Positions 2,644 through 32,046 of a DNA stretch of 33,045 nt are shown here, one piece after another. The stretch spans positions 1-33,045 of the IMG/VR virus record IMGVR_UViG_3300045988_036764. One strand, 5' to 3'. Below the pieces are notes generated by a model. That model did not search any database. It was not told the DNA's origin and worked only from the letters and a program-made list of their open reading frames with translations. The stretch comes from a virus. Positions within the stretch are counted from its first letter, which is position 1. Every line of letters begins with the position of its first letter. The translations under genes and the position numbers were made by a program.

Positions 2644-2682
2644 GAAAAAAGCCACTGCACATGATGCGGTGGCTCATTTTTT
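2644..2682. terminator. Bidirectional intrinsic terminator (end of int; end of the rightward lysis transcript)
   Basis: A 10-bp stem AGCCACTGCA / TGCGGTGGCT (2650-2674) with loop CATGA. An A-run lies upstream and TTTTTT downstream. Confidence 0.75.
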
Positions 2683-3844
2683 ATTTATTTGCAAGTACTT
2701 TACCCATATTAGTAATTGCTGCATTTACTTCTTGTTTCATTTCATCGGTTACATGAGTATATATAGCAAGTGTAGTACGTGGCTCATTATGGCCCACACG
2801 TTCCATAATTGCTTTTAAAGGCACATTGGACTCTGCAAGAATAGATATATGAGTATGTCTGAATGTATGTGTGCTTACAGGTTTGTGAAAGTCAAGTTTT
2901 TTTATAATTCGATTAACATAATGTAGATCATATGGTAATCCACCATCAGTAACAAAGATATATCCTAAATCAGCAAACTTAGATTTCCATAATCGTCTTG
3001 CTTGATTAGCAGTAATAAAATGATTAATGATTTGTACTGCCCTAGCATCTAACTTTACCCTGCGGATAGAATGAACATTCTTTGGGGAAAGGCGCATAGC
3101 AGGGTCTGAAAAACTACCACGAGTAGACAAAGTAGCGTTTATATCAATCTCTGCATTTTCTCTATCATAGTCTTGAGTGCGCAATGCTACCATTTCACCA
3201 AATCTAAGACCAGTTAAAGATTGAAATTCACATAATAGAGATACATGATGATTAATAGTATCTAATTGTGTAAGTAAATCTTTTAGTTCATCTTTAGTAA
3301 GGAATTTAGAACGCTGTTTCTTGATGCGGTTAACATCTGCTACAGGCTTTTGGAGTTCTATATTATCTAAAAATGAAATGTCACGGATATACTCCATGCG
3401 CCTTGCATACTTCAATGATTGTCTAATTAGGCTAAGAGCAAGCTTAGTATAGTTATATGAATATTGGCAAGCGAATTTATCAAAGGTACTTTGGATAATA
3501 TAAGGAGATAACTTAGATAATAATATATCAGTAGGGAACCATTTAATAACTTGCTTATGTAAATTATCCATACTATATTGAGTAGATGATTTTCTAAACG
3601 CACGCTTTGACTCTAAATATTCAGATACAACATCATTCAATGTCATATCTTTGGCAATATCTGTATTAGTGGCCAAGTCAATTTTCTTTTGTAATTCAGC
3701 CTGCGCAAGCTTGTATGCTTGTCTACTATTAGAAGTATATGTAACAGATACTCTTTTTGTTTTACCACTATATGTATCTGTATAGCGTTCTTGAAATTTA
3801 TATTTAGTAATACCAGCTTTAGTGGTTATCGTTTCAACCCACAT
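2681..3844 (-). CDS. int: Tyrosine recombinase / phage integrase
   Basis: 387 aa. N-terminal SAM-like region. Catalytic region ...LTGLRFGEMVAL...HTFRHTHISILAESNVPLKAIMERVGHNEPRTTLAIYTHVT carries the R...HxxR...Y signature. SD AGGAGG lies upstream. Confidence 0.95.
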   Translation of the reverse strand: MWVETITTKAGITKYKFQERYTDTYSGKTKRVSVTYTSNSRQAYKLAQAELQKKIDLATNTDIAKDMTLNDVVSEYLESKRAFRKSSTQYSMDNLHKQVIKWFPTDILLSKLSPYIIQSTFDKFACQYSYNYTKLALSLIRQSLKYARRMEYIRDISFLDNIELQKPVADVNRIKKQRSKFLTKDELKDLLTQLDTINHHVSLLCEFQSLTGLRFGEMVALRTQDYDRENAEIDINATLSTRGSFSDPAMRLSPKNVHSIRRVKLDARAVQIINHFITANQARRLWKSKFADLGYIFVTDGGLPYDLHYVNRIIKKLDFHKPVSTHTFRHTHISILAESNVPLKAIMERVGHNEPRTTLAIYTHVTDEMKQEVNAAITNMGKVLANK

Positions 3845-3850
3845 TAAAAA

Positions 3851-3937
3851 ATACCTCCTAGGCTAAAAATGGTATAAGAAATAAGCCTTAGAGGTATGAT
3901 ATAATAATGGTGGAGTAAAAATGAAATACCTCTAAGG
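3851..3937 (-). promoter_or_regulatory. int leader with mutually exclusive pairings around the Shine-Dalgarno
   Basis: On the int mRNA there are three segments. A = CCUUAGAGGUAU (3937->3926). B = AUACCUCUAAGG (3897->3886). C = CCUAGGAGGUAU, the int SD (3862->3851). A:B pair 12/12. B:C pair 10/12, covering GAGGUAU. Confidence 0.4.
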
Positions 3938-3983
3938 TATGTAGTTTTTAGTGGCCCTCACTGCGGTGGGGGCTTATTTTTTT
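3912..3983 (+). ncRNA. Candidate ~70-nt antisense sRNA between immA-like gene and int
   Basis: An extended -10 TGaTATAAT (3897-3905) on the + strand is followed about 50 nt later by a + strand-specific terminator (3953-3983). Both flanking genes are on the - strand. The RNA would carry AUACCUCUAAGG (3926-3937). Confidence 0.3.
3953..3983 (+). terminator. Intrinsic terminator oriented on the + strand inside a minus-strand gene block
   Basis: Stem GCCCTCAC / GTGGGGGC (8 bp with one G-U pair), loop TGCG, followed by TTATTTTTTT. There is no U-run in the minus orientation. Confidence 0.6.
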
Positions 3984-3989
3984 ATGTAA

Positions 3990-4256
3990 TTAAAGCACAT
4001 GATGATAGAAATCTATTTCTTCAAGTAATTCATCTGTAAGTTCTTTTCGTCTTACCATGTGTTCAATTAAATTAACATGATGATCTATGTGAAAATCATC
4101 ATTAATGATATGCAGCAATTCATGCTTTACTTCGTTACGCATATCTTCAAAAGACATATTCTTGCGAATATAAATATTGTGTACACCTTCATCTTCCCCA
4201 ACAGATGCCACAGCTTTAACATTAGGAATATCACACTCAATAATATTAACAACCAC
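3990..4256 (-). CDS. ImmA/IrrE-family-like zinc metallopeptidase (short), putative anti-repressor protease
   Basis: HExxH motif within EVKHELLHIIND. It lies directly downstream of the XRE repressor and upstream of int, the same order as immR-immA-int modules. Confidence 0.7.
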   Translation of the reverse strand: MVVNIIECDIPNVKAVASVGEDEGVHNIYIRKNMSFEDMRNEVKHELLHIINDDFHIDHHVNLIEHMVRRKELTDELLEEIDFYHHVL

Positions 4257-4280
4257 TCTCTAACATCCCCCATTACAAGT

Positions 4281-4667
4281 TTATTTGTGTTTTAGTTTGA
4301 GTAATTCTATATATTCTACAGCTTTTTCCATATCCTCCTTAGAGATACCACGAGATGCGGAGAATAACATACGCATTTCTGGACGAGTGCGAAGCATTTC
4401 CGCATACTCTGCAGTTTCTGCATCTAAATAATAATTAGTAGATTGCTCATTTGTTGGAATATTCTCATCATAACCAAGTAACCATGCAGGGCTAACATTT
4501 AATGCTTTAGCAATAATATATACTTTATCTTGCTTTGGTTCGTATCGGTCATTTAACCAATCAGAAATGGAGGATTGACGGATACCTGTACGCTTTGCTA
4601 ATTCAGTTTGAGTTATTTTGCGTTCTTTCATGATACTTTTTAAACGATTTATAAAATGAATACTCAT
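4281..4667 (-). CDS. XRE-family HTH repressor (cI/ImmR-like)
   Basis: Helix-turn-helix region ITQTELAKRTGIRQSSISDWLNDRYEPKQDKVYIIAKALNVSPAWLLG. Divergent from the early operon. Has a C-terminal extension. Confidence 0.9.
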   Translation of the reverse strand: MSIHFINRLKSIMKERKITQTELAKRTGIRQSSISDWLNDRYEPKQDKVYIIAKALNVSPAWLLGYDENIPTNEQSTNYYLDAETAEYAEMLRTRPEMRMLFSASRGISKEDMEKAVEYIELLKLKHK

Positions 4668-4700
4668 GATAACTTCTCCTCTAATACTTGCTATACGATT

Positions 4701-4819: not shown

Positions 4820-4842
4820 TAATTAAAAAAGGAGGTGAAAAA

Positions 4843-5075: not shown

Positions 5076-5097
5076 TAATTAAGGAGAGTTAATACAC

Positions 5098-5863: not shown

Positions 5864-5879
5864 AAAGGAATGTGTAGTA

Positions 5880-6101: not shown

Positions 6102-6332
6102 ATGAACATTATAAATCTAATAACAACCGTGCAATGGTGCTTAGGAATATTAGGGTTAGGACTATATGGAGGAATTGAGCAAGCAGAAGGCTGGCAAATA
6201 TTAATCAATATAGTTTTAACAATAACAACTGGCATCACAATTTGGATGTTAGGCAGGGTTAAGGAGGTGATAAAACATGAAAGACAAAAAAGAAAAAGCA
6301 CTAGATTTACTAAAAACATATTTAATGTTTGA
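6102..6332 (+). CDS. Small membrane protein (2 TM)
   Basis: Hydrophobic segments WCLGILGLGLYGGI and ILINIVLTITTGITIWMLG, with a basic C-terminus. Confidence 0.55.
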   Translation: MNIINLITTVQWCLGILGLGLYGGIEQAEGWQILINIVLTITTGITIWMLGRVKEVIKHERQKRKSTRFTKNIFNV

Positions 6333-6564
6333 TGATGAAGAAATGCAGGTGTTAAGGGAACGCATTACATCAATTAGCGTAAGCAATAAAAGCGCAAGTT
6401 TAGACTTTACTATTCTTGCTAATGGATGCGCTATTTTTGTTAAGCGAAAGACAGGGGAATATGTATTACGCATAACAGGTAAAGGCCCAATTAAAGAGAA
6501 CAAAGTATATCTTGCATTAAGGGCAAGAGAAATACTGCTTGATGCGGTGACAAGCAATGAGTAA
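6277..6564 (+). CDS. Hypothetical early protein (95 aa)
   Basis: Strong SD AAGGAGGTG lies 7 nt upstream. No motif recognised. Confidence 0.6.
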   Translation: MKDKKEKALDLLKTYLMFDDEEMQVLRERITSISVSNKSASLDFTILANGCAIFVKRKTGEYVLRITGKGPIKENKVYLALRAREILLDAVTSNE

Positions 6565-6894: not shown

Positions 6895-7692
6895 ATGAGG
6901 AAGCGTAAGAAGGTCATATCTAAAAACATGATAGAGGTACTTGATTATCACACATCAAGAACTTATAGAAAGAATGGGAAGCGTGTAAAAAAGAAAAACA
7001 TCACACCAGAAGCCGTGAAAAAGCAAAATGAAAAACAAGCGGAAGCAATGCTGCGTATGTTGATTGATAATAACTTCACTACAAATGATTGTTACATCAC
7101 ACTCACATATAAAGAACAGCCTGCAACATGGGACGATGCAAAGAAAGATATTCAGAATTTTATAAGACGGCTTAAACGTAGATATAAAAAACTGGATAAA
7201 GAATTGAAATACATTTACATAGCGGAAGGGAAAACAAGAATACATTTCCACATGATCATCAACAATGCAGAACTATATTCAGATGAGTTGAATGAACTTT
7301 GGCCACATGGCATGCATAAGTTGATGTTGTATCAAGGAAGGGCAGAAGATGCAGTGAGATTAGCAAGCTACTTTGTAAAAGAAAAACGGAGTGCATGTTA
7401 TTCAGATAAAGAGGATGCATTTAAGCGCAGGTGGAACAGTAGCAAGAATTTAGAAAAACCAAAAGTAAAAACAGAAATATTGAAGCCAAGCGAATGGAGA
7501 GATTACATCCAACCGCCAAAAGGCTATTACGTGGAAACAGACAGTGTAGTTGAAGATGTATCTGATGAAGGTTATCCTTATAGATTTTACAGATTAATAA
7601 GAATTGAGGAGGTAAAACATGGCACTACTAGGAATAGGAGTTGTAGTAGGGGTAATGCTAGGGGTATCAATCATGGCATTATGCGTAATTAG
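6895..7692 (+). CDS. HUH-superfamily rolling-circle replication initiator (Rep)
   Basis: Three ordered motifs with about 45-aa spacing. Motif I is CYITLTY. Motif II is RIHFHMIIN (H-hydrophobic-H). Motif III is LASYFVKEK (Y-x-x-K). Confidence 0.7.
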   Translation: MRKRKKVISKNMIEVLDYHTSRTYRKNGKRVKKKNITPEAVKKQNEKQAEAMLRMLIDNNFTTNDCYITLTYKEQPATWDDAKKDIQNFIRRLKRRYKKLDKELKYIYIAEGKTRIHFHMIINNAELYSDELNELWPHGMHKLMLYQGRAEDAVRLASYFVKEKRSACYSDKEDAFKRRWNSSKNLEKPKVKTEILKPSEWRDYIQPPKGYYVETDSVVEDVSDEGYPYRFYRLIRIEEVKHGTTRNRSCSRGNARGINHGIMRN

Positions 7693-7741
7693 TAAAGAAT
7701 GTGAGAAATGGGAGGATGAAGTAAGTGATAAACGTAAATGA
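7619..7741 (+). CDS. Small single-TM protein (40 aa), not in the ORF track
   Basis: ATG lies 6 nt after GAGGAGG. Translation: MALLGIGVVVGVMLGVSIMALCVISKECEKWEDEVSDKRK. It overlaps the rep 3' end and the ssb start. Confidence 0.5.
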   Translation: MALLGIGVVVGVMLGVSIMALCVISKECEKWEDEVSDKRK

Positions 7742-8093
7742 AGTATTTTTGAGCGGTAACGTAGTAGCAGATGCAGAACTACGATACACAAAAACTGGAA
7801 AGCCAGTACTTACATTTAGAATGGCAACAAATAAATATGTGAATGAGCAACAGAGTACACAATATCACAACATTGTATGCTGGGTTGATGCGGAAAAATA
7901 CAGTGGATTAAAGAAAGGTGATTTTGTATCAGTAAATGGTGAACTAAGAACTAGATCATATGAAAAAGACGGAGGGAAAAGATACATTACAGAGATTGTG
8001 GCCAAAGTCCTTACATATGGATTGAAAGAAAATGAAAGTACATCAAATTTTGAAAATGGGTTTGTAGACGATGATGAGCCCATTCCATTCTAG
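7725..8093 (+). CDS. ssb: Single-stranded DNA-binding protein
   Basis: OB-fold start INVNEVFLSGNVVADAELRYTKTGKPVLTFRMA, plus the hallmark acidic tail DDDEPIPF. GTG start follows GGGAGGA. Confidence 0.9.
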   Translation: MINVNEVFLSGNVVADAELRYTKTGKPVLTFRMATNKYVNEQQSTQYHNIVCWVDAEKYSGLKKGDFVSVNGELRTRSYEKDGGKRYITEIVAKVLTYGLKENESTSNFENGFVDDDEPIPF

Positions 8094-8585: not shown

Positions 8586-10072
8586 TGAAAAAAGTAATGT
8601 TAGCAGTAATGGTATTAAGCGCAGTAGTTAATGGTGCATATGCAAATGGAACAAATAATTTAGTAGGTGGTACAGATAACACAATCACACCAGCATCTCA
8701 TAGTAGTGCAGTATTTGGTTATCAAAATAAAATTGATGCTAATAACGCAATTGCATTCGGTGAAAACAACGTGGCAAGCGGTACTAATTCCTTTGTAGGT
8801 GGTAATGATAGCAAGGCAACAGGTCGCAACTCCTTTGCATATGGTAGCCATGCAGAAGCGTTGACTGAATACACGTATGCAATTGGTAGCCAAGCTAGAA
8901 CATCAGCATATGACACTATTGCAATTGGCAATGGCGCATATGTAAGTGGTGTATCTAGCGTTGCAATTGGGCGCACAAACAATATCACTGGTGAAAATAC
9001 AGTGGTTGTAGGTGCTAATAACAAAGACATTAAAGGCAATCAATCAACTGTGATTGGCTACAATAACAAAATGGCTGGTGATATGGAACAAACTATCATT
9101 GGCGCAAATTCTGAAACTGCAGGACAGGGCTCTATGGCCATTGGGACACATACAAAGGTTACTGCAATTGATGCGGTAGGCATTGGCAATAATATTGTGG
9201 CGGATAAGCCAAATAGTGTTGCATTAGGAACAAACAGTGTAACAGACAATGCAGTTAATCAACTACAAGCAATGGTAAACAATACAACATATGTATTTGC
9301 TGGTACAGATGCAACATCTGTAGTAAGCGTAGGCAGTAAACAACGTGCAGGCTTTGGTGGAGTAAAAAATTATGTTCGCCAAGTACAGAATGTTGCAGCA
9401 GGCAGAGTAGATGCATCTTCAACTGATGCAGTAAATGGTTCACAGCTACATGCTGCATATGATGCCATTAATACAATGGGTGAAGATATTGATAAAGCAC
9501 TAGATGCACAACAACAATTCAATACTGCAGTACATAACACACTAGCAAATCATAAGGATGCAATCAAAAATAATACACAACACATTGCACAACATGATGC
9601 GGACATTGCAAATAATAAAAATGCTATTAAGGCTAATGATCGTGTATTGAAAAATCATGAAGAGCGCATTGATAAGTTAGAGCATCAAGCAAGCAATACA
9701 TTAACAAATTTAAAATCAGACATTAAGCAATTAGACGGACGAATTAATAAAGTGGGTGCAAGTGCAGCTGCATTAGCTGGACTACATCCAATGGAATTTA
9801 ACAAAGATGATAAATTTAGCACATCTGTAGCATATGGTCACTATAAAAATGCCAATGCAGTGGCACTAGGTGCATACTACAGACCAAATGAAAAAGTATT
9901 ACTTGGCATTGCAGGTACATTTGGCAGTGAAAACATGTACAACGTAAGCGCATCTTTCAAATTTGGCAAACATAGTGAATATGAACCACAAGCGAAACGT
10001 GACGGAGAAATTGAAGCTATGAAAGCACAAATTGCAGAATTAACAGCAAGACTTGATGCGGTAAGCAAATAA
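8585..10072 (+). CDS. Trimeric autotransporter adhesin (YadA-like, type Vc)
   Basis: Signal peptide MKKVMLAVMVLSAVVNGAYA. About 200 aa of Hep_Hag-type head repeats (NSFVGGNDSKATGRNSFAYGSHAEA, SVAIGRTNNITGENTVVVGANN...). Neck motif VVSVGS...RQVQNVAAGRVDASSTDAVNGSQLHA. Coiled-coil stalk. YadA-type anchor GASAAALAGLHP...AVALGAYYRPNEKVLLGIAGTFG...NVSASFKFG. A roughly 30-aa coiled-coil tail follows the anchor. Confidence 0.9.
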   Translation: MKKVMLAVMVLSAVVNGAYANGTNNLVGGTDNTITPASHSSAVFGYQNKIDANNAIAFGENNVASGTNSFVGGNDSKATGRNSFAYGSHAEALTEYTYAIGSQARTSAYDTIAIGNGAYVSGVSSVAIGRTNNITGENTVVVGANNKDIKGNQSTVIGYNNKMAGDMEQTIIGANSETAGQGSMAIGTHTKVTAIDAVGIGNNIVADKPNSVALGTNSVTDNAVNQLQAMVNNTTYVFAGTDATSVVSVGSKQRAGFGGVKNYVRQVQNVAAGRVDASSTDAVNGSQLHAAYDAINTMGEDIDKALDAQQQFNTAVHNTLANHKDAIKNNTQHIAQHDADIANNKNAIKANDRVLKNHEERIDKLEHQASNTLTNLKSDIKQLDGRINKVGASAAALAGLHPMEFNKDDKFSTSVAYGHYKNANAVALGAYYRPNEKVLLGIAGTFGSENMYNVSASFKFGKHSEYEPQAKRDGEIEAMKAQIAELTARLDAVSK

Positions 10073-10895: not shown

Positions 10896-11311
10896 AGCCA
10901 TTAGTATATAAAGGCCTAAGAAAGAACTTAAACAGGTCAGAATGGGTAAGCAGTGATGAAATAAAGCAAAGCTACTCACAAATAAGGCTATTAGCAGTAG
11001 AAAATGACACCTATGCATGGGTACCAATTGAGGACGGAACACTATGCAGAGGAAGCGAAGCAAAAGACACGCTAGGGAAAAGAATATACGAAAAGGACCA
11101 TATAGAGTTTGATTGCAAATCAATACAAGATACACCAATGGTAGGGGAAGTATATTACAGCGTGGATAAATACCAATGGAGATGCAAGGCAATTAACCAG
11201 CAGGACACAACACAACATGATGCGGTATTAGATTTTGACTTAGCATTTGTATTGAACAATGGGAAAGTAAAAGTAATAGGCAATAGATTAGAGGGATATG
11301 AGCATGAATGA
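10892..11311 (+). CDS. YopX-like protein
   Basis: LGKRIYEKDHIEF...MVGEVYY...VKVIGNRLEGYE resembles the YopX pattern (GK.IYEGD...G.V......IGNI.EN.EL). Confidence 0.5.
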   Translation: MKPLVYKGLRKNLNRSEWVSSDEIKQSYSQIRLLAVENDTYAWVPIEDGTLCRGSEAKDTLGKRIYEKDHIEFDCKSIQDTPMVGEVYYSVDKYQWRCKAINQQDTTQHDAVLDFDLAFVLNNGKVKVIGNRLEGYEHE

Positions 11312-12365: not shown

Positions 12366-12859
12366 GGATACTAAGCATTGGGTTTGGGGATAAAAAGAAA
12401 GTAAAGTATGAGAAAGCAAATAATGCTGGTATTACTGAAACATATCAATTAAGTACGGAGGACGATTTCAGACCAGAGATATTAGAACCATATGTAAATG
12501 CAAGAGCATTAGTATTTGAAGTGTTTAAAGTATTTAAGCTATTTGAAGAAGAGTGGATGAAGATTAAATCCATTAGTTTTAAATGGCATAAAGAAATGCC
12601 TAAAGTTATTACAGAAGTAAAGTATGTGCTTTTAATAACAAACAAAAAAGGGGATGAATGTACAATTAGCACTTCATGGCTTCCAGTAGAAGAGGAAACA
12701 CAAGATAAACTAATTCCATTAGTAGAAGAAATAGAACTATTTGTAAGAGGTGCAAGAGCGCAGGGGAAACTATGGGAAGATGAATTAGACAATGATGCGG
12801 TTGAGGGTGAAACATTTCACATCAATGATCTAGTACAAGAAGGAGAAGAGGATGATTAA
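12362..12859 (+). CDS. Hypothetical acidic protein (165 aa)
   Basis: ATGA start/stop overlap. Strongly acidic C-terminus ...DELDNDAVEGETFHINDLVQEGEEDD. Confidence 0.55.
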   Translation: MRILSIGFGDKKKVKYEKANNAGITETYQLSTEDDFRPEILEPYVNARALVFEVFKVFKLFEEEWMKIKSISFKWHKEMPKVITEVKYVLLITNKKGDECTISTSWLPVEEETQDKLIPLVEEIELFVRGARAQGKLWEDELDNDAVEGETFHINDLVQEGEEDD

Positions 12860-13649: not shown

Positions 13650-13724
13650 TGGGCATGGATGAAGAGAACACTTTCAACAAGCCTCCTAGAAAAACTACAC
13701 ACTATTAAGGACTACATCATACAC

Positions 13725-13757
13725 AGGTCGCACAACACAGTATGATGCGGTCCTTTT
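13725..13757 (+). terminator. Weak terminator-like hairpin in the late-operon leader
   Basis: GG(t)CGCA...TGCG(gt)CC followed by TTTTT. The stem is imperfect and the loop is 13 nt. Confidence 0.3.
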
Positions 13758-14269: not shown

Positions 14270-14665
14270 ATGCTAAAAGCATGTAGCTATTGTGGAGGAA
14301 TACATGAAGGAGATTGTCCACATAAACCAAAACGCAACTACAAGCAGGAGCATGCAAATGCATCTGATAGCAGGAAGAAAGAACGGAAGTTCAGAAGTAG
14401 TATTGAATGGCAAGACTGCAGAAGAAATATATTAGATCGTGATAAGCATCTATGTAGACTATGCTTGCACGAAGATAATTATATTAGTGTAGGGCAACGC
14501 TTAGATGTACATCACATTGAGCCATTACATGAAGCATGGAAGAAGCGTACTGATGAAAAGAACTTGATTACATTATGTAAGATGCATCACTACAAAGCAG
14601 ACCATGGAGAATATAAGAGGGAGTACTTAAAAAAAATAATTAGCACCCCCCCTACCATAAAATAA
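14270..14665 (+). CDS. HNH endonuclease associated with the terminase
   Basis: CSYCGGIHEGDC..., WQDCRRNILDRDKHLCRLC...LDVHHIEPLHE...NLITLCKMHHYKADH. It is located directly upstream of terS. Confidence 0.85.
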   Translation: MLKACSYCGGIHEGDCPHKPKRNYKQEHANASDSRKKERKFRSSIEWQDCRRNILDRDKHLCRLCLHEDNYISVGQRLDVHHIEPLHEAWKKRTDEKNLITLCKMHHYKADHGEYKREYLKKIISTPPTIK

Positions 14666-14699
14666 ATTTTTGGCGAAAAAGTCCAAGACCGTACTGCTC

Positions 14700-14766
14700 A
14701 CCACAATTTACACAATTTTCCCTAATGGGACATGCGTGCGCACGTGAATATATATTTATTTATATT
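14700..14766. promoter_or_regulatory. Candidate cos / terminase recognition region
   Basis: Direct repeat CACAATTT at 14702 and 14711. GC-rich perfect palindrome CGTGCGCACG at 14735-14744. AT-rich tract at 14747-14766. It lies in the intergenic region between the HNH gene and terS. Confidence 0.4.
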
Positions 14767-14812
14767 GTAACTATACAAGGATGCTGAAATAGAGAGGAAA
14801 GGAGGTAGACCC

Positions 14813-15268
14813 ATGAGAAAGGCTGTATCAGCAAGGACTACAAAGAAGCACTTAACAAAGGCAGAAAAAGAAAAACGTATAGCTGTAGAAAATGCGTTTA
14901 TTGATGATGCGGAAATAGAACCGCCAAGCTATTTAACTAAAACACAATTAGAAGCATTTCATTTTATTGTTGATGCATTAAGGCAAGCTAAAGTATTAAG
15001 TCGATTAGATACACAAACGATTATTCAAGCTAGTGTGGTTATTGATATGTTACACACTGCAAATAAGCGTGTGGCCAAAAGACCAACACTTGCAATTGAT
15101 AGAGAATTTGTAGCAACACAAGAGAAGCTGGTGAGAACATATTTAAAATTATGTGATGAATTGTGTCTATCTCCACAATCTAGGGCGAAGCTTGGAGTAC
15201 TTGTAGCTAATCAAAAAGAAGAAGAACAAGATCCATTGCTTAATGTACTGCAAGGGGGTAGTAGTTGA
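14813..15268 (+). CDS. terS: Terminase small subunit (P27 family-like)
   Basis: SD AGGAGGT lies upstream. The sequence ...LTKTQLEAFHFIVDALRQAKVLSRLD...LCDELCLSPQSRAKLG is typical of P27-type small subunits. Confidence 0.8.
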   Translation: MRKAVSARTTKKHLTKAEKEKRIAVENAFIDDAEIEPPSYLTKTQLEAFHFIVDALRQAKVLSRLDTQTIIQASVVIDMLHTANKRVAKRPTLAIDREFVATQEKLVRTYLKLCDELCLSPQSRAKLGVLVANQKEEEQDPLLNVLQGGSS

Positions 15269-16965
15269 TGAATAAAAAACATCCAGCCTACAAGTACGCA
15301 ATGGATGTAGCAGAGGGTAAAGTCAATGCACCTAAATATGTCAAACTACAGGTAAAGGAATTTCTTACTATTGCCAATGGTAAAGATAGCCGTTACATGA
15401 TTGACGATAACAAAGTGCATACTATAGGCGAACTATTGAAGTTGATGGTAATGCCTAAAGGCTTGAAAGCTAATTCTACTGTGTATGATGCGATGGCTGG
15501 GTTTCAATGGCTATTCATCATAGCTATTCTAGGCACTGTAGAACGTGATAATAAAGATAAACGAAGATATGAAAATGCTATATTAGAAATATGTAGAAAG
15601 AACGGCAAGACATTCCTAATTGCTGTTCTTTTTATTTTGCTTTTCTTCATTGAACCTAAATTCTCTAAATTCTACTCAGTCGCTCCAGATGGTTCGCTAT
15701 CTCGTGAAATTAAAACGGCTATTGAAGAGATAATCAGAAGTAGTCCAGCACTATTGGGGAAGATGAACGGCAAAGAAAAGTTTAAAATATTGCGTGATTA
15801 CATCCACTGTAATATTACTGAAAACAGATATACACCTCTTAACTACTCAACAGGGCGGTTAGATGGTAAATTGCCTAGTGTATTTCTTGTAGATGAAACA
15901 GGAGCATTGCCAAATACCTATGCTATTGAAGCTATGAGGTCAGGGCAGTTGACGATACTCAACAAGCTAGGCTTCATTATTTCAACTAAATATCCTACAC
16001 TTAACAATCCATTTGAAGATGAAGTGGACTATGCAAAGCGTGTATTGAATGGTGCAGTAGATGATGATAAGGTGTTCGCCTTGTTATATGAACCAGATGA
16101 TACAAAAGGATGGGCCACAAACGATGAAGTACTAGAACAAAGTAACCCACTAGCTATTGAAATGGAAGAAATCATGGATGACTTGAAATCGAAAAGGCAA
16201 GTAGCTATAGAGATTGAAAGCAAGCGTGAGAACTTCATAACAAAGCATTGCAATATCATTTATAGCGGTGCTGGTAGTGAAAGCTTTGTAAACGTTGCTG
16301 ATTTACAAAAGGGTGCAATAGATCATATCGACTGGAGCGGTAGAGAAGTATTCCTTGGGGTTGACTTAGCTATGACTACTGATAACTGTGCCGTATCTAT
16401 GGTGGCATTTGATGAAGAAACAGAAAAGGTGTACCTTGATGCGGTGGCCTTTGTACCAGAAGATAGAATAGATGAAAAGTCAAAATTGGAACGTATTCCA
16501 TATCGTGATTTTATTAATGCTGGATATTGTCTAGCGTGTGGCAATCGTACAGTAGATTATGGTGCAATTGAACGCTTTATTATGGCAATTGAAAGCAAAT
16601 ATGGAGTTACAGTAATGGGGATTGGCTATGATAGATATAATGCACTATCAACTGCGCAAAAATTAGAAGATGCAGGCTATACAGTGGTAGAAATTAAGCA
16701 ACATTCTAGTGTATTACATCCTGCTACTAAATGGCTTGCAGAGTTAGTAGCAGAAGGAAATTTAGTATATGAAAAAGGAAATAAGTTACTAGAAATCAAC
16801 TTTGAAAATTCAAGATGTGTGTACGATACCAATATGAACCGATATGTAAATAAAAAGAAATCAAGGGGCAAAGTTGATATGGTAGTAGCTGGTATCAATG
16901 CAATGTATTTGTTGCATCAAAATTATATGCTTAATAGTACCCTTGATTGGGTAGTGCAAATGTAG
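15268..16965 (+). CDS. terL: Terminase large subunit
   Basis: ATG overlaps the terS stop (TGATG). Walker A-like CRKNGKT and Walker B-like VFLVDETG. C-terminal nuclease-size domain. About 565 aa. Confidence 0.9.
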   Translation: MNKKHPAYKYAMDVAEGKVNAPKYVKLQVKEFLTIANGKDSRYMIDDNKVHTIGELLKLMVMPKGLKANSTVYDAMAGFQWLFIIAILGTVERDNKDKRRYENAILEICRKNGKTFLIAVLFILLFFIEPKFSKFYSVAPDGSLSREIKTAIEEIIRSSPALLGKMNGKEKFKILRDYIHCNITENRYTPLNYSTGRLDGKLPSVFLVDETGALPNTYAIEAMRSGQLTILNKLGFIISTKYPTLNNPFEDEVDYAKRVLNGAVDDDKVFALLYEPDDTKGWATNDEVLEQSNPLAIEMEEIMDDLKSKRQVAIEIESKRENFITKHCNIIYSGAGSESFVNVADLQKGAIDHIDWSGREVFLGVDLAMTTDNCAVSMVAFDEETEKVYLDAVAFVPEDRIDEKSKLERIPYRDFINAGYCLACGNRTVDYGAIERFIMAIESKYGVTVMGIGYDRYNALSTAQKLEDAGYTVVEIKQHSSVLHPATKWLAELVAEGNLVYEKGNKLLEINFENSRCVYDTNMNRYVNKKKSRGKVDMVVAGINAMYLLHQNYMLNSTLDWVVQM

Positions 16966-21812: not shown

Positions 21813-22928
21813 ATGGCGATTGGCTTACCAAATATCGATATTGTCTTTTTACAAAAGGCAGTATCTGCGGTATTACGTTCCGAACGTGGTACGGCTTTAA
21901 TTATCGTTAAAGACGATAAACAAACTCAAATCAGTTATGATGTATTCAAATTTGAAGCAGATATTACCGATAAAAAATACAATGCCGATACAATTAAATT
22001 GTTGAAGCGTTGCTTTTATGTGAATGTAAATAAAGTAGTAGTATTACACGTTCCAACTAGAACAACTGCATTTGCAGATATTAAACAAGTATTAGACCGC
22101 ATTAAATATAACTGGGCTTGTACTACTGTAGCAGAATGGCAAACAGACTTAGTGTCTTACACTAAGAGCCGTAATGTTATTTCCAAAGGCCGTAAGGTTA
22201 AATGCGTAGTTGCTAACGTAGCAGTTGCAGATGATAAACACGTTGTAAATATGAAAGGTAATTTTGTACATGAAGCTGATGCGGAAGCTGGCACTAATGT
22301 CAAAATGACTGATTACTTACCACGTATTACATCTATTTTGGCTAACTTGCCAATGAATAGAAGTATCACATACTATGAATTGGAAGATTTAGACTATGTG
22401 GATAACTCTTATGTTACTGCAGAAAAAGATGTAAACAAATGGACTGATGAAGGCTGGTTGCTTCTTATTAATGATGATGAAGATAACGTAGTGCGTGTGG
22501 GCCGTGGTGTTAATACATTGACTACATTCACATCTACTGATACAGAAGATATGCGTAAAATCATCATCGTTGAAAGTATGGATTTAATTCAAGAGGATTT
22601 GTATTCCACGTTTAAGAAATACTACGTGGGTAAATATAAAAATCACTTGGATAACCAATACTTGTTTATTTCTTCTGTGAACGCATATTTCAAATCCTTA
22701 ACTAAAGTAGTTAATGGTGAAATTTTAGATCCAGAATATGACAATCATGCGTTTGTTGATGTAGAAAATCAACGTCAAGCGTGGTTATCTGTAGGCAAAA
22801 CAGAAGCAGAAGATTGGGATGAAGCAAAAGTTAAAGAAATGTCCTTCAAGTCTACTGTATTCATTGCTGCTAAAGTTAAAATTCTTGATGCTATGGAAGA
22901 TTTAAGCTTCCAAATTACTATGGAATAA
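21813..22928 (+). CDS. Contractile tail sheath protein (XkdK-like)
   Basis: 371 aa. SD AAGGAG lies upstream. N-terminus MAIGLPNIDIVF. Immediately precedes an XkdM-type tube gene. Confidence 0.8.
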   Translation: MAIGLPNIDIVFLQKAVSAVLRSERGTALIIVKDDKQTQISYDVFKFEADITDKKYNADTIKLLKRCFYVNVNKVVVLHVPTRTTAFADIKQVLDRIKYNWACTTVAEWQTDLVSYTKSRNVISKGRKVKCVVANVAVADDKHVVNMKGNFVHEADAEAGTNVKMTDYLPRITSILANLPMNRSITYYELEDLDYVDNSYVTAEKDVNKWTDEGWLLLINDDEDNVVRVGRGVNTLTTFTSTDTEDMRKIIIVESMDLIQEDLYSTFKKYYVGKYKNHLDNQYLFISSVNAYFKSLTKVVNGEILDPEYDNHAFVDVENQRQAWLSVGKTEAEDWDEAKVKEMSFKSTVFIAAKVKILDAMEDLSFQITME

Positions 22929-25875: not shown

Positions 25876-26538
25876 ATGAGCTTTCAAGACAACGCTAAAA
25901 GCATAATGAAGCAACGCTTAATGACGAAACAAGCGGACTTGCAAAAGTTAGCGGTAACTCGTGCTACTAAGTTTGCTGATAAAATTTCACATGGTCTAGT
26001 CGGTAAGATTTTAGATTATGCCGAACGAAAACCAACTACAGATATTGTATTTCACTCTGAATTAACAGATGAATACATTACATTGCCTGTAGTACCTAAC
26101 CCTTTACCTACGATTAGTGAGCCACAATCTAACGAAACATTTAATGGTCTTAGGGGCGATATTAAACTCATAGGGCCTTTAGGACTGCGAACACTAACAC
26201 TAGATAATATCTTGTTACCGATTAATAAGGATTACTCATTTATTCGTGGTAATGGTAGCGATGGACTACAATGCTTGCAATTCTTTCAAGCACAACGGCA
26301 GATGAAAGCCGTGATGCGGATATGTATTATTCAATCTGATGGGAATGAAATCCTTAATATGCCATGTGTCATTAATGATCTATCTTACACATATGATAAG
26401 GTTGGAGATATTAAGGCAACAATAGGCATTGAAGAGTATGTATATACTAATACATCAACTACGGCTCAATCTTCGACTGGTGGCGAAAATAAGGCTACAG
26501 ATACAAAAGCTACTGATAGTAAGGCGGTTAAGAAATGA
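25876..26538 (+). CDS. Tail/baseplate protein (position of XkdP; no LysM seen)
   Basis: 220-aa ORF with SD GGGGGTG, located between the tape-measure and XkdQ-like genes. Confidence 0.45.
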   Translation: MSFQDNAKSIMKQRLMTKQADLQKLAVTRATKFADKISHGLVGKILDYAERKPTTDIVFHSELTDEYITLPVVPNPLPTISEPQSNETFNGLRGDIKLIGPLGLRTLTLDNILLPINKDYSFIRGNGSDGLQCLQFFQAQRQMKAVMRICIIQSDGNEILNMPCVINDLSYTYDKVGDIKATIGIEEYVYTNTSTTAQSSTGGENKATDTKATDSKAVKK

Positions 26539-29905: not shown

Positions 29906-30515
29906 TACAGACTTCAAAGAATATGCATTAAAAGCCATTAATAAGATGTATCGTAATGATCCATGGGTTAGAGAATTATATCAAGCTGCAGGATTGCAAT
30001 TACAAGATATAGATGAACTACTAGATGTGTTACTAGATAATGGCTTCTTTGATGCGGTAGGTGAACGTGGTTTAAAGGTTTACGAAAAAGATTTAGGCAT
30101 CAAAGGTGATGGCTCAATTGAACAACGCAGATCCATAGTGCAAATGTTATGGAATAATAACGGCAAGTGTACGCTAGATAGAATTAGGGCAATCGTTAAA
30201 ACATTCGTTCTTGATGATGTAGATGTTCAGTTTGAAGATGGTGTATTAAAGTTAGAGTTTAACAACTCATCCTTTGTATATGCTATACCACAAATTAGAA
30301 GCAACTTGACTGTGGTGAAACCTTCACATATTGGATTAAGTATTAATGATGTGCATAGCGTTGATACTGATTTATATGCTGGTAGCATTGTTACTACATT
30401 TGAAACTACTACCATAAATCCGATGGTAGGTTTTAACTCAACGCTAGATGATGCATCTATAGTGGCTGGTGTATACATTACTAAAGCCAATGTGATTAAT
30501 TATATTAATTGTTAA
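29898..30515 (+). CDS. XkdU-like tail protein (DUF2313 / P2 gpI-like)
   Basis: The sequence YRNDPWVRELYQAAGLQLQDIDELLDVLLDNGFFDAVGERGLKVYEKDLGI. Confidence 0.7.
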   Translation: MTNTDFKEYALKAINKMYRNDPWVRELYQAAGLQLQDIDELLDVLLDNGFFDAVGERGLKVYEKDLGIKGDGSIEQRRSIVQMLWNNNGKCTLDRIRAIVKTFVLDDVDVQFEDGVLKLEFNNSSFVYAIPQIRSNLTVVKPSHIGLSINDVHSVDTDLYAGSIVTTFETTTINPMVGFNSTLDDASIVAGVYITKANVINYINC

Positions 30516-30526
30516 GGGGGTATATA

Positions 30527-31474
30527 ATGCCTAGTCAATATCCACAGAACGTGGTAACTAAAAACGGATTGGCAATGATTGCCGAAAGTGTGGCAACACG
30601 AAAGAATTTAATATTTACACGTGTAGTAGTAGGTGATGGAGATGCTACAGGTCGTAATTTTAATGATATGACTTCTGTAATTTCTCCTAAAATGGAACTG
30701 CCAGTAACAAGCGGTGTAAACGAGGGGAATGGTCAATATTTAATTACAGCCACTCTATCCAACAACACTTTAAATGTAGGCTTCTTCCCACGTGAAGTTG
30801 GACTATATGCAAAAGTAGATGGTAAAGCAGAAATGCTATATAGCTATACAAACGGTGGCAATAATGTAGGCTATGTGCCAGATAAGACTACACCGATTGA
30901 TAGCGAAATTTATAAAATCAGAACAGTAATTGGTAATGCAAAAAACATCACTATCAATATGTCTGATAGTACATTTGTTACTAAAGGTGAACTAGATAGA
31001 TATGTTGCTATTAATTCTGGTGCTTATATCAAGGATGCGAATAAAACTAATACAGGACTATCACTGATTAAAGGTGATAACACATCGAAGGTACTTGATT
31101 TTATTACTGCTAATTACAGTGATAGTGATACAAATAAAGTGCTTAATTTATCAACCCTTAAAAGCTTGTTGGGGCAAGGTGCCATAGTAGCATCTAAACT
31201 AACCAACAATGGTGGCTTTATTAAATTTGCTAACGGTTTCACTATCCAATGGGGAATTGGCGGTCAAGATAACGTAACTAAGTCAGAGGTAACCTTCCCA
31301 ATTAGATTTACTACTTTATTCATGGCTAATGCTATTGATGCATATTGGAGTGGTTCTGATACACCGAGATATTTTGCAAATTCTGCTAACGAAAGCAACA
31401 ATACAAAAGCGACATTTGTAGCAAGTGATAGATATGCAGCATCATATTATTGGTTTGCATTAGGAATGGCATAA
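30527..31474 (+). CDS. Tail fibre protein
   Basis: ATG follows AAGGGGG. N-terminus VVTKNGLAMIAESVATRKNLIFTRVVVGDGD resembles the conserved N-terminal domain of P2 gpH-type fibres. Confidence 0.7.
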   Translation: MPSQYPQNVVTKNGLAMIAESVATRKNLIFTRVVVGDGDATGRNFNDMTSVISPKMELPVTSGVNEGNGQYLITATLSNNTLNVGFFPREVGLYAKVDGKAEMLYSYTNGGNNVGYVPDKTTPIDSEIYKIRTVIGNAKNITINMSDSTFVTKGELDRYVAINSGAYIKDANKTNTGLSLIKGDNTSKVLDFITANYSDSDTNKVLNLSTLKSLLGQGAIVASKLTNNGGFIKFANGFTIQWGIGGQDNVTKSEVTFPIRFTTLFMANAIDAYWSGSDTPRYFANSANESNNTKATFVASDRYAASYYWFALGMA

Positions 31475-31490
31475 TAGAAGGAGAAAACAC

Positions 31491-31883
31491 ATGAACCAAT
31501 ATGTATTCGTATTAAATGAACAAGGTGAACGTATTACATCTTTTGTTGACAATATAATTAGCAAAGATGAATTACTAGATCATGCTAAAAAAGAATGGCC
31601 AAATGCAGCGGATTATATCTACTCCACAGACGGTGATAGCATGCTAGATGAATTTATGGCTGGCAAGTTTTATGTAAATGGTGAGTTTGTAATTCCACAA
31701 CCAAAAGAACCAACTAAGGCTGAACAAATTGCAGAAATTAAAAATTACTATGATAAACGATTTGATGCCCTTGATAAAGCCGTATTGCGTAGACGATTAG
31801 CGAATGCGGATATTAGTGATTTGCAAGCACAATATAAAACTTTACAAGCTGAAATGGTAACTAAAATTAAGGCGGTGAAATAA
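31491..31883 (+). CDS. Hypothetical protein, possible fibre assembly factor (by position)
   Basis: SD AAGGAG lies upstream. 130 aa. No motif recognised. Confidence 0.45.
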   Translation: MNQYVFVLNEQGERITSFVDNIISKDELLDHAKKEWPNAADYIYSTDGDSMLDEFMAGKFYVNGEFVIPQPKEPTKAEQIAEIKNYYDKRFDALDKAVLRRRLANADISDLQAQYKTLQAEMVTKIKAVK

Positions 31884-31884
31884 T

Positions 31885-32046
31885 ATGGAAGAAATCAAAA
31901 GCAATGTACCTGTAATGCGTTTTTGTGAATATTGTTGGGCCACTTTAAATGAAAATGGCACTTGCCCTACAGAGGGTTGCATTCATAATGATCTAATGGA
32001 TTTAGAAGAGGATGATGCGGATGTTACCAGTCCAACACAACTTTAA
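31885..32046 (+). CDS. Small zinc-ribbon-like protein (53 aa), not in the ORF track
   Basis: Translation: [53 protein letters not shown] (CxxC...CxxxxC). Confidence 0.45.
   Translation: MEEIKSNVPVMRFCEYCWATLNENGTCPTEGCIHNDLMDLEEDDADVTSPTQL

Follow-up and report, generated by a model that had tools for sequence, protein, structure and literature searches.

A strand-polar octamer of Veillonella phages is a candidate Chi sequence of the Veillonella parvula/dispar group

The octamer TGATGCGG is a candidate Chi sequence of the Veillonella parvula/dispar group, of a type known in phages; we put the probability of this reading at about 0.7. The word is real and exact, its polarity follows the DNA strand, and it is specific to one host lineage. 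It is enriched in the host DNA, denser in the phage than in the host, and densest on the right-end side of the phage genome. Chi is a short word that is read on the 3′-ended strand by a helicase-nuclease acting at double-strand ends, and it switches degradation to RecA-loading repair. In Firmicutes, AddAB is expected to be the Chi-reading enzyme; it is the putative reader of TGATGCGG, and the word would exert its biochemical effect there. All computational checks that were set agree with the Chi-like polar signal proposed by the sequence-only reading of this DNA.

The octamer in the phage genome

The window, i.e. the whole analysed stretch of 33,045 nucleotides, holds the entire 33-kb genome of a temperate Veillonella phage whose cos packaging is of HK97 type. 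The genome combines an HK97-type head with a contractile-tail-type baseplate module, and two HNH genes adjoin the terminase genes. The following modules are relevant here.

2681..3844, − strand: tyrosine integrase at the prophage edge, the anchor from which the host flanks of six chromosomal sites were recovered
6895..8093, + strand: replication initiator of rolling-circle type (REP_ORF2-G2P) and SSB; no other DNA-transaction genes are recognisable in the early region
14270..16965, + strand: HNH endonuclease, P27-type small terminase and large terminase, the HK97-type cos packaging module
14666..14812, no strand: putative cos region, a non-coding gap that separates the HNH gene from terS and would set the virion ends

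The recognisable genes of the early region include no recombinase, no exonuclease and no Gam-type gene; some ten small ORFs in this region have no annotation and could conceal an inhibitor. The putative cos was placed in the gap 14666..14812 on the basis of the HK97-type gene order. This gap contains the words CTGCTCACCAC and CCCCCCTACC, which are conserved in all group A relatives, and the palindrome GTGCGCAC. Packaging is probably rightward, which sets the orientation of TGATGCGG regarded as active; all 17 copies in the window are in the active orientation for entry at the putative right end. The sites are listed below.

2662..2669, + strand: copy 1, intergenic (lysis genes / integrase gene), 3′ part of a terminator-like hairpin
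3322..3329, + strand: copy 2, antisense to the minus-strand integrase gene (2681-3844), relatives arranged alike
4354..4360, + strand: near-copy GATGCGG with A in place of the 5′ T, antisense to the minus-strand repressor gene, not an exact member
6540..6547, + strand: copy 3, ORF 6277-6564, read Leu-Asp-Ala-Val
7886..7893, + strand: copy 4, SSB gene (7725-8093), read Val-Asp-Ala-Glu
9169..9176, + strand: copy 5, YadA-like adhesin gene (8585-10072)
9595..9602, + strand: copy 6, same adhesin gene
10054..10061, + strand: copy 7, same adhesin gene
11218..11225, + strand: copy 8, ORF 10892-11311
12793..12800, + strand: copy 9, ORF 12362-12859
13743..13750, + strand: copy 10, 3′ arm of a hairpin of terminator type that precedes the first HNH gene
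14905..14912, + strand: copy 11, small terminase gene, read Asp-Asp-Ala-Glu
16437..16444, + strand: copy 12, large terminase gene
18478..18485, + strand: copy 13, prohead protease gene
22277..22284, + strand: copy 14, ORF 21813-22928
26312..26319, + strand: copy 15, ORF 25876-26538, other open frame (Val-Met-Arg)
30050..30057, + strand: copy 16, baseplate gene 29898-30515
32013..32020, + strand: copy 17, Asp-Ala frame of a 53-aa gene (31885-32046; gene call from an identical contig)

With 17 copies on the + strand and 0 on the − strand, the coordinates given by the sequence-only reading were exact throughout, and the extra GATGCGG heptamers it reported at + 4354 and − 21604 are both present. 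Its tally of 13 copies in the Asp-Ala frame of 11 genes holds with the 53-aa gene included, and we agree on the different frame at 26312 and the antisense position at 3322. The hairpins it saw at 2662 and 13743 are terminator-like, with folding z-scores of −4.1 and −3.1. Its count of ten copies in 6.5–14.9 kb had to be corrected to nine, eight of which lie left of the putative cos; the nearest of these, copy 10, is 997 bp away. Clustering near cos is marginal in the window alone (p = 0.04). In the relatives, the terminase genes part a denser left side (0.81 per kb) from a sparser right side (0.36 per kb).

Dinucleotide shuffles of the window gave a mean of 0.48 copies and a maximum of 3, in line with the earlier estimate of well under one octamer per strand. 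Codon-preserving shuffling (53 ORFs, 2000 shuffles) gave an expectation of 0.83 copies on the + strand (maximum 5) and 0.14 on the − strand, against 16 and 0 observed in this ORF set. The count is thus 19 times the codon-aware expectation, and codon-aware shuffling, named beforehand as a check, reproduces neither the count nor the 17:0 skew. Twelve of the 18 x-Asp-Ala-[GEDAV] contexts in the window are written as TGATGCGG, with GCG making up only 11% of the Ala codons. One-mismatch variants stay at background on both strands (11 vs 8), which shows that TGATGCGG is a sharply defined 8-mer; the 5′ T is present in 17/18 + strand GATGCGG copies. The following base, said to be always T or A, is so in 17/17 window copies, but this rule does not extend to 103 distinct sites in the relatives (T 0.49, A 0.38, C 0.10, G 0.04), where it is a preference only. 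An exact 8-mer with background flanks is what a site read by a translocating enzyme should show. The mean spacing in the window is ~1.9 kb (one copy per 1.94 kb).

Related phages and their recombination genes

The comparison with related phages, also suggested by the earlier reading, gave the same polarity. In 65 related loci TGATGCGG occurs 499:24 (+ vs −); the distinct sites number 60 on the + strand and 3 on the − strand against 2.6 expected (z = 34), and the next unrelated word reaches z ~13. Counted over 82 related loci, the integrase-strand genes hold 114 antisense copies and a single sense one, and genes of either orientation have the same density (0.39 and 0.41 per kb). This confirms that the orientation tracks the DNA strand and not the coding strand. 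The word is retained in 56/61 group A relatives at the site of copy 11, in 55/58 at copy 13 and in 35/43 at copy 14. The motif-free B1 relatives have GATAATGCGG or GACAATGCGG at the first of these sites; at the second, the word is missing from B1, B2 and C. At the third, B1 relatives with the identical Ala-Asp-Ala-Asp peptide use scattered synonymous codons, which shows that selection on TGATGCGG exists only in the word-bearing lineage.

The density of TGATGCGG is anticorrelated with phage recombination genes. Relatives with Erf or Rad52-like recombinases, NinB and a Gp157 gene contain almost no TGATGCGG. The phage L003/L437, whose TerL is 99% identical to that of the window and which is the only Rec+ phage with the window's structural module, carries Gp157 ('Mu Gam-like'), ERF and NinB; over the 9.4 kb of its early region TGATGCGG stands at 1:1, vs 0.75 per kb in 27 Rec-less relatives. 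'Gam-like' is the PHROG label for Pfam Sipho_Gp157, and a Gam-type function is putative here. The B1 relatives (Gp157, Rad52-like, NinB) have zero copies, and among loci with NinB and a Veillonella-like GC content (65 loci, 691 kb) the count is 34:10 vs 14.7:9.7 expected. The contrast by recombination module is confounded, since a rolling-circle Rep goes with the word-rich phages and a DnaD-like organizer with the word-poor ones, and the B1 phages also differ in GC (45%).

Host DNA and the sister lineage

The enrichment and polarity in the host were assessed on prophage flanks, a small sample of ~250 kb pooled and roughly 100 kb unique, always beside prophages and of mixed species. At six chromosomal sites, 36 copies of TGATGCGG are co-oriented and 4 are opposite; 31 are observed against a codon-aware expectation of 6.7 (4.6 times), and the word is top-ranked of all octamers in the host flanks alone. 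These results bear out the host enrichment and polarity that the sequence-only reading set as a check. The enriched flanks include core host genes (the men operon, ribosomal protein genes, mutSL and lepA) with the polarity of the prophage, and prophage and flank share the orientation at 6/6 integration sites. GC skew is positive on the TGATGCGG-bearing strand in 24/24 host flanks. Almost all genes of the sample are co-oriented with TGATGCGG, and the replication polarity, with the presumed assignment of leading and lagging strand, is taken from GC skew only. The density is 0.52 per kb in the phage vs 0.16 per kb in the host flank (~3 times), with a host range of about 0.16–0.19 per kb. The per-locus densities of prophage and host are not significantly correlated (rho 0.24, p 0.27). 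No AddAB or RecBCD genes lie within the host flanks sampled, and a literature search found nothing on AddAB or RecBCD in Veillonella or on either of them reading the word.

A sister lineage of the same phage family is poor in TGATGCGG. This lineage and its host flanks bear GAAGCGG instead, at 6:0 to 10:0 per locus. The word class, TGATGCGG or GAAGCGG, goes with the host flank and not with the phage module.

The proposed role and its likeness to known systems

On this reading the phage, which lacks a recombinase and an end-protection gene, has gathered the host Chi on one strand, as have E. coli phage LLS and Pseudomonas phage MD8. The terminase cut at cos would free the right end, where the nuclease would enter and move leftward, and all copies of TGATGCGG would face it. 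The nuclease would come upon the first copy after ~1 kb and would have met eight by 8.2 kb. With this the phage DNA would escape degradation and enter host RecA recombination, giving packageable concatemers. In the prophage state, the orientation matches the polarity of the surrounding chromosome. The earlier proposal was an array protecting linear or rolling-circle DNA. Its first half fits right-end entry; should Rep nick the + strand, the free end of a rolling-circle tail would meet TGATGCGG in the inactive orientation, which makes right-end entry after cutting at cos the better fit for a protective role.

The octamer might instead be a replication-linked single-strand signal, supposedly exposed on the displaced + strand of rolling-circle replication and on the chromosomal lagging-strand template, where it would mark sites of complementary-strand priming or of loading of a replisome component; this is unlikely. 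It would suit the rolling-circle-type Rep of all word-rich phages and the DnaD-like organizer of word-poor ones, the ~1.9 kb spacing, which is Okazaki-fragment size, the densest stretch beginning just downstream of the rep gene, and the host copies on the G-rich, gene-sense strand, i.e. the lagging-strand template. However, known primase sites are trinucleotides, and we know of no bacterial primase or primosome that needs a 7–8-base word. The identity of the sister word with the S. aureus AddAB Chi would be left unexplained, as would the matching anatomy, with proven Chi, of E. coli and Pseudomonas phages that replicate from theta to sigma. Slightly less probable again is an architecture word of KOPS/SRS type, which FtsK/SpoIIIE would read on duplex DNA and which would direct their translocation towards dif, with the prophage ameliorated to its replichore. 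Like these FtsK/SpoIIIE-orienting words, TGATGCGG is a polar octamer co-oriented with replication; it is first in the host flanks, 90% co-oriented, and prophage and flank agree at 6/6 sites. Yet the phage is ~3 times denser and stands at 19 times its codon-aware expectation vs 4.6 times for the host, and amelioration cannot overshoot the host, so this excess counts against a KOPS/SRS word. The density also varies with the recombination/replication module and peaks next to cos, neither of which a segregation signal predicts, and to our knowledge KOPS show no enrichment over the host level in phages, none near cos and none that tracks phage recombination genes. Known KOPS/SRS words are G-rich purine runs, whereas TGATGCGG ends in GCGG like AddAB Chi.

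Recognition by a phage-encoded protein, e.g. phage T5-like strand-specific nicking by one of the two HNH endonucleases, is improbable. The single strand of all phage copies, the HNH genes beside the terminase genes and the higher density in phage than host speak for it; against it, core host genes are enriched 4.6-fold with the same polarity and first rank, L003 keeps the family packaging/HNH region yet has a foreign early module without the word, and the class of word goes with the host flank rather than the phage module. A DNA uptake sequence for natural transformation, an alternative raised by the sequence-only reading, fails on polarity and is very improbable. Uptake sequences are split about evenly between the two orientations, with a host density of about 1 per kb, whereas TGATGCGG is polar in phages (499:24) and host (36:4) and reaches only about 0.16–0.19 per kb in the latter; a link to phage recombination genes is not expected either. 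In its favour, TGATGCGG bears a loose likeness to the Haemophilus core. Veillonella parvula is naturally competent, and its transformation by isogenic genomic DNA is ~100 times better than by PCR products, an unexplained difference (PMC5397411). A coding by-product, through a favoured Asp-Ala codon pair or base composition, can be dismissed. It would account for the 13/17 copies in the GAT-GCG frame and for nearly all genes lying on the + strand, but it is refuted by codon-preserving shuffles (0.8 copies), by the 114:1 antisense count and by relatives that have the same peptides without the word; copies also lie in another frame, in non-coding hairpins and antisense.

The Chi reading is further supported by comparison with known systems. 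E. coli Chi GCTGGTGG is likewise an octamer, with a comparable density in the host (1 per 4.6 kb vs roughly 1 per 5–6 kb in the sampled flanks), a modest host excess (O/E 2.3–2.4; 4.6 for TGATGCGG, from a small sample) and stronger over-representation in Rec-less phages; its sequence is unrelated and its enzyme family is another. Pseudomonas aeruginosa phage MD8 carries 32 Pseudomonas Chi sites GCTGGCGC and none opposite (PMC12315714). In the window, too, a host-specific octamer lies wholly on one strand of a temperate phage (17:0). The Pseudomonas word reportedly has an independent biochemical basis from a separate study, whereas the Veillonella word is drawn from genome data.

The E. coli phage LLS and MD8 have no recombination module and many Chi sites; LLS has one Chi per 1.86 kb, 2.5 times denser than its host (PMC12315714). 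Like the Chi-rich E. coli phages of the LLS type (PMC12315714; PMC3784561), the window is a temperate cos phage without recombinase or nuclease inhibitor, with a site per ~1.9 kb, nearly all sites active for right-end entry, about half of them near the right end, 2.5–3 times the host density, and Rec-module relatives without sites. It differs in its host, a diderm Firmicute (Negativicutes) in which Chi is undescribed and AddAB, not RecBCD, is expected, and in its HK97-type head, contractile-tail-type baseplate and rolling-circle-type Rep in place of lambda O/P; the phage is known from sequence alone.

The AddAB Chi words include AGCGG of B. subtilis, GAAGCGG of S. aureus and GCGCGTG of Lactococcus lactis (bioRxiv 10.1101/2021.07.08.451572). 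TGATGCGG, a candidate known here from its sequence, differs by one base from (T)GAAGCGG and requires the 5′ T. It shares with the AddAB Chi of Firmicutes the 3′ GCGG end (B. subtilis, S. aureus), the length of 7–8 bases, the location mostly within genes and a host co-orientation of ~90% (89.7% in S. aureus; 36:4 for TGATGCGG), and the sister Veillonella lineage bears the S. aureus word GAAGCGG itself.

Occurrence of the octamer in the phage genome and its relatives

The window is a complete temperate phage genome with 36% G+C, and its host is Veillonella. Relatives of its integrase occur in a 495-kb V. parvula contig, in a V. dispar MAG and in V. ratti, and the prophage adjoins a tRNA-Leu/Phe/Asp cluster and the menaquinone (men) operon. 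A near-identity search of the window against deposited phages gave no match. In exact look-ups, its integrase, lysin and last lysis-side gene were either unrecorded or present only on free 33-kb circular-type contigs without a host flank. The lysis genes are followed by the integrase and repressor genes on the − strand, the early region, the packaging and head module, and the tail and baseplate genes. The packaging and head module is of the HK97 type and encodes an HNH protein, a P27-type small terminase, the large terminase, the portal, an S78 protease and the HK97 capsid protein. The early region encodes a rolling-circle-type initiator (REP_ORF2-G2P), an SSB, an antirepressor, a YadA-like adhesin, a sigma-like regulator and two HNH proteins. 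No recombinase, exonuclease or Gam-type gene was detected in it with PHROGs and Pfam, about ten small ORFs being unannotated, and the Gp157, Erf, NinB, RecT and exonuclease genes of relatives have no tblastn match in the window.

Features of the window
2305–2680, beside the integrase gene (− strand): att region
4354, + strand: additional copy of the heptamer GATGCGG
7866–7872, 9575–9594, 11198–11217 and 13723–13742, + strand, 5′ of word copies: CACAACA-rich runs
8585–10072: YadA-like trimeric autotransporter adhesin (495 aa) with head, stalk and anchor domains; three word copies
14666–14812: gap of 147 bp between the HNH and small terminase (terS) genes; putative cos region
21604, − strand: additional copy of GATGCGG
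22277, + strand: word copy in an Ala-Asp-Ala-Asp coding context

The position of cos and the direction of packaging are deduced from the HK97-type order HNH–terS–terL, which makes the HNH–terS gap the likely cos region. Two words of this gap, CTGCTCACCAC and CCCCCCTACC, do not vary among about 60 relatives, and CATGCGTGCGCACGTG in the gap contains the palindrome GTGCGCAC. The adhesin is a candidate lysogenic-conversion gene of a diderm Firmicute; a 0.5-kb segment of it is 82–85% identical to DNA of four NinB-bearing loci (L435, L448, L454 and L452). The att region, of which about 220 bp are common to free phage contigs and to the host flank at the tRNA-Leu gene (11165–11500 in the related locus L083), is also where many metagenome contigs break. 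In some relatives, Fic and Abi_2 (abortive infection) genes lie between the repressor and integrase genes (L287 7953–9397, L299 7041–8051, L306 2174–3133) and are likely to be moron or defence cargo of the lysogeny module.

The sequence-only reading had pointed to the octamer TGATGCGG, which contains GATGCGG, as a Chi-like polar signal. All 17 + strand starts that it listed are exact, the − strand carries no copy, and the two additional heptamers are placed correctly. Dinucleotide-preserving shuffles of the window give 0.48 copies on average and 3 at most. The word is the top octamer of the window by strand skew. Variants with one mismatch do not rise above background on either strand (11 on +, 8 on −), so the signal is a sharply bounded 8-mer. 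A codon-aware null, in which synonymous codons were shuffled 2000 times among the 53 ORFs with all proteins preserved, predicts 0.83 copies on the + strand (maximum 5) and 0.14 on the − strand; 16 and 0 are observed. Of 18 peptide contexts that allow the word, 12 use it, GCG making up just 11% of the Ala codons. The two non-coding copies do lie in terminator-like hairpins. The cluster of copies in 6.5–14.9 kb holds nine on recount, not ten, and the T or A described after every copy is not a rule; in relatives it persists as a preference. The CACAACA-rich runs before some copies, e.g. acacaacacattgcacaaca and cagcaggacacaacacaaca, are probably a local coincidence or reflect a common peptide (Thr-Gln-His), since the logo of 103 distinct sites from relatives has no general upstream conservation.

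Eighty related loci were collected through the large terminase and sorted into classes. The 65 loci of the word-bearing class (35–37% G+C) contain 499 copies on the terminase strand and 24 on the opposite strand. Collapsing homologous positions leaves 60 distinct sites on + and 3 on −, where 2.6 are expected (z = 34); for the next unrelated word, z is about 13. The word is absent from nine relatives with about 45% G+C, termed B1, whose terminases are roughly 89% identical, and from two more distant groups. The word-bearing group retains it across several amino-acid variants, for example in 35 of 43 loci at the site corresponding to 22277, where the B1 phages encode the same Ala-Asp-Ala-Asp peptide with scattered synonymous codons. 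The flanks of the 103 sites are at background. As for Chi, the short word that switches an end-degrading helicase-nuclease of the RecBCD or AddAB type to RecA-loading repair, TGATGCGG is short and exact, has no conserved flanks and is missing in relatives from other host classes.

The orientation follows the DNA strand, as had been proposed, and not the coding strand. Integrase-strand genes of 82 integrase-centred loci contain 114 antisense copies (56 distinct contexts) and 1 sense copy, and the word density is alike in both gene orientations (0.39 and 0.41 per kb). The antisense copies and the equal densities exclude explanations based on mRNA, codon pairs or transcription. A coding artefact is refuted by the codon shuffles, by the antisense copies and by the relatives that encode the same peptides with scattered codons. 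A scan of the viral collection for a two-copy DNA pattern returned mostly chance matches in high-GC contigs and in tandem-repeat genes. Two loci with Veillonella-like G+C, L105 and L149, were rejected as carriers of dispersed sites; there the word belongs to the unit of a tandem repeat in genes for fibre or collagen-like repeat proteins, and L149 has it 10 times in 8.3 kb.

The octamer in Veillonella chromosomes

Host DNA was reached through integrase homologues in long contigs and one metagenome scan with an integrase alignment. The integrase-centred viral contigs mostly continue into lysis genes, as circular genomes do, and contain no host DNA; a concatenated-protein query for several host regions gave 4 weak matches only. 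Six chromosomal sites were obtained: the men operon (about ten strains, 71–99% identity), a transporter region, rpsF–ssb–rpsR, smpB–rnr–cysS, hemN–lepA–mutSL and one more. The sample is small, about 250 kb when pooled, all beside prophages and nearly all with co-oriented genes, opposite-strand genes amounting to only 10.6 kb.

In the host flanks, 36 copies point the same way as the neighbouring prophage and 4 the other way (0.16 per kb); the prophage halves of the same loci have about 127 and 0 (0.52 per kb). Extrapolated to 2.1 Mb, the flanks would correspond to about 350–400 copies. Codon shuffles of the host genes give 6.7 sense copies (maximum 16 in 500) and 0.9 antisense copies, compared with 31 and 3 observed. 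In an unbiased ranking of all octamers in the host flanks alone, TGATGCGG comes first, with 21 distinct co-oriented sites versus 3 and 2.6 expected. The word is therefore enriched in host core genes above the codon-aware expectation, as measured in flanks beside prophages, and more so in the recombinase-less phages of this host. The densities of prophage and host flank are not significantly correlated per locus; only the grouped contrast described below is significant. A second polar host octamer, TGCATTAG / GCATTAGC, ranks just below TGATGCGG in the pooled flanks (18:1 and 15:3 distinct sites). It is not enriched in phages and may reflect codon pairing or be a different architecture word.

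Replication polarity was read from gene direction and GC skew in flanks that contain neither origin nor terminus. GC skew is positive on the word-bearing strand in 24 of 24 flanks, as for leading-strand sequence, and the 36:4 bias follows the genes. At all six integration sites most prophage genes point in the direction in which the neighbouring host genes and the positive GC skew also run (L083, L287, L294–L297, L299, L302, L306, L371 and L373–L383). Phages of this family are always co-oriented with the presumed direction of replication at the integration sites seen. In 16 of the 21 host flanks listed, a word copy is no more than about 160 bp away from the integrase stop codon. No AddAB-like gene was found among the long ORFs of the flanks, and no addAB or recBCD in the host DNA examined. 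AddAB is expected in Firmicutes. A literature search returned nothing on the word itself, on a Veillonella Chi or on AddAB in Negativicutes.

Recombination genes of the phages and variant words

The abundance of the word varies with the gene content of the phage. One contig, IMGVR_UViG_3300045988_040268 (loci L003 and L437), is a mosaic. Its terminase and structural module is 99% identical to that of the window, and its early module encodes a Sipho_Gp157 protein (Pfam; the PHROG label is 'Mu Gam-like end protection'), an ERF-family annealing protein, NinB/Orf and a DnaD-like replisome organizer. The late region carries the word at the usual density of the family, 0.41 per kb. The early region has it only 1:1 in 9.4 kb, compared with 0.75 per kb in the 27 relatives without a detectable recombination (Rec) module, 24 of which have a detected rolling-circle Rep. 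This early module shares 80–89% nucleotide identity with a separate family of phages of about 41 kb. Sixty-five further NinB-bearing loci (34–38% G+C, 691 kb in total) have 34:10 copies against 14.7:9.7 expected; many of them are contigs of about 41 kb that share DNA at 80–89% identity with the L437 early module and the YadA segment with the window. The word-free B1 phages encode Gp157, a Rad52-like or Erf protein, NinB and a Holliday-junction resolvase. A search for a replacement word in B1 gave no clean outlier, which is explained by their Rec module. The informative Rec modules of the family are of the Erf/Gp157/NinB type, the search for RecT/YqaJ within the family having returned L289 only. 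The word is abundant in phages without recombination and end-protection genes and near chance in those with them, a contrast that is confounded with the type of replication module. This dependence is predicted for a Chi sequence and not for a segregation or uptake signal.

Several loci are poor in TGATGCGG (L287, L288, L359, L289, L364 and L366; terminase loci L070 and L072). The contrast is significant both in the prophage halves (0.16 versus 0.57 per kb, p = 9e-4) and in the host flanks (0 versus 0.19 per kb, p = 0.012). The top polar words of this set are TGAAGCGG and GAAGCGGA, and TGAAGCGG differs from TGATGCGG by one base. The heptamer GAAGCGG, which in this sub-class usually follows a T, is found 10:0 in L070 (6326–17734), 6:0 in L072, 8:0 in L359 and 9:0 in L287, where 4 copies belong to the prophage and 5 to the host flank. 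Codon shuffles give 2.2 copies where L070 has 9 (a count attained in 0 of 1000 shuffles) and 1.4 where L287 has 5 (8 of 1000). Over 138 low-GC loci, GAAGCGG and TGATGCGG are anticorrelated (rho = −0.28, p = 0.001); the GAAGCGG sample is small, and some main-class flanks also have a few copies of it. GAAGCGG gives Chi-like protection to rolling-circle plasmids in S. aureus, and its 3′ end is the B. subtilis Chi AGCGG (bioRxiv 10.1101/2021.07.08.451572). The sister word is a supported lead and is the strongest sequence-level link to AddAB; it suggests that the polar word has been switched by one base between Veillonella lineages.

A further word, GGCGCTGG, is present 12:0 in 32 kb that lack TGATGCGG, in L079 (4431–18793) and L080 (2335–8584) only. 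These are distant relatives with about 45% G+C and TerL proteins 63–66% identical, and L079 has a rolling-circle Rep. GGCGCTGG may serve a different host as its polar word, although with z = 6 the sample is too small for a clean rank. It is conceivable, at rather less than even odds, that the words of recombinase-less phages report the Chi specificity of their hosts. The one-base switch between TGATGCGG and (T)GAAGCGG in sister Veillonella lineages, with GGCGCTGG as a possible third word in a more distant host, would then form a natural series for AddB–Chi co-evolution.

A candidate Chi sequence of Veillonella

TGATGCGG is an exact, strand-polar octamer that faces the putative cos-proximal right end, and we propose it as a candidate Chi of Veillonella. 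As far as sequence analysis reaches, the Chi-like reading is supported by the codon shuffles, by the 499:24 and 114:1 ratios and by the host flanks. The following steps are drawn from knowledge of RecBCD and AddAB and from work on lambda (Kobayashi et al. 1982, cited in PMC12315714). The terminase would cut at cos and remain on the left end. The host helicase-nuclease would enter the free right end and travel leftward, the + strand being its 3′-ended strand. Within about 1 kb it would reach a word from the 3′ side, cease degrading that strand and load RecA, and recombination with a second phage copy could then yield the concatemers required for packaging. For the integrated phage, this orientation of the word matches the polarity of the surrounding chromosome at 6 of 6 integration sites seen. 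If Rep nicks the + strand, a rolling-circle tail would, at its free end, offer the word in an inactive orientation, which makes protection of the tail less likely than protection of the cos-cut right end.

Other roles for a polar word have to be weighed against this proposal. A signal for priming or for the replisome, linked to rolling-circle replication, fits the strand and the correlation with the replication module; such a 7–8-base word has no known precedent, however, and the identity of the sister word with a known AddAB Chi is left unexplained. The host skew of 36:4 is what a KOPS/SRS-type word orienting FtsK or SpoIIIE would show, but the three-fold excess in phages, the clustering near cos and the dependence on phage recombination genes do not fit such a word. 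Were TGATGCGG the site of a phage nickase, its enrichment in core host genes would be unexplained. The DNA-uptake-type signal that the sequence-only reading had offered as an alternative fails on polarity and on density: equal orientations and about one copy per kb of host are expected, and 499:24 in phages, 36:4 in host flanks and 0.16–0.19 per kb in flanks are seen.

No Chi has been described for Veillonella or any Negativicute. TGATGCGG, with GAAGCGG as its sister variant, would overturn nothing; it gives a specific, cheap-to-test candidate and a possible one-base specificity switch. The word statistics of phages and prophages may be a general route to Chi in uncultured or genetically poor bacteria. 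V. parvula is a naturally competent model commensal of mouth and gut, and genomic DNA transforms it about 100 times better than linear PCR constructs do (PMC5397411). Equipping such linear constructs, or rolling-circle vectors, with the word in its correct orientation is a practical lead for V. parvula.

The arrangement resembles that of E. coli phage LLS, which lacks a Rec module and has 23 Chi sites, one per 1.86 kb and 2.5 times as dense as in its host; 20 of these are oriented so as to act on RecBCD that comes in at the terminase-free right end (Zheng et al. 2025, PMC12315714). The same study lists 62 further phages of this kind and, besides these, Pseudomonas phage MD8 (32 sites versus 0). 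Chi is mostly missing from phages that have a Rec module together with a RecBCD inhibitor, a trend that Bobay et al. (2013, PMC3784561) also reported. The window has the word once per 1.94 kb and 17:0 on the terminase-gene strand, whose 3′ end would, from the gene order, lie at the right virion end. As in LLS, the density in the phages exceeds that in the host (0.52 versus 0.16 per kb), and recombinase, exonuclease and nuclease inhibitor genes are undetected in the early region with its ten or so unannotated small ORFs. The nearest copy lies about 1 kb from the putative cos, eight copies lie within 8.2 kb, and 8 of 17 fall in the 25% of the genome at the right-end side (p = 0.04). In relatives, the density is 0.81 copies per kb over 10 kb to the left of the terminase genes and 0.36 per kb on the right side, the left-side copies being spread over many different sequence contexts in a mosaic region. 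The LLS-type rule would thus extend from RecBCD hosts to a Firmicute-type host and a different phage architecture. The phenomenon itself is known from Enterobacteria and Pseudomonas; new here are the host clade and the candidate word.
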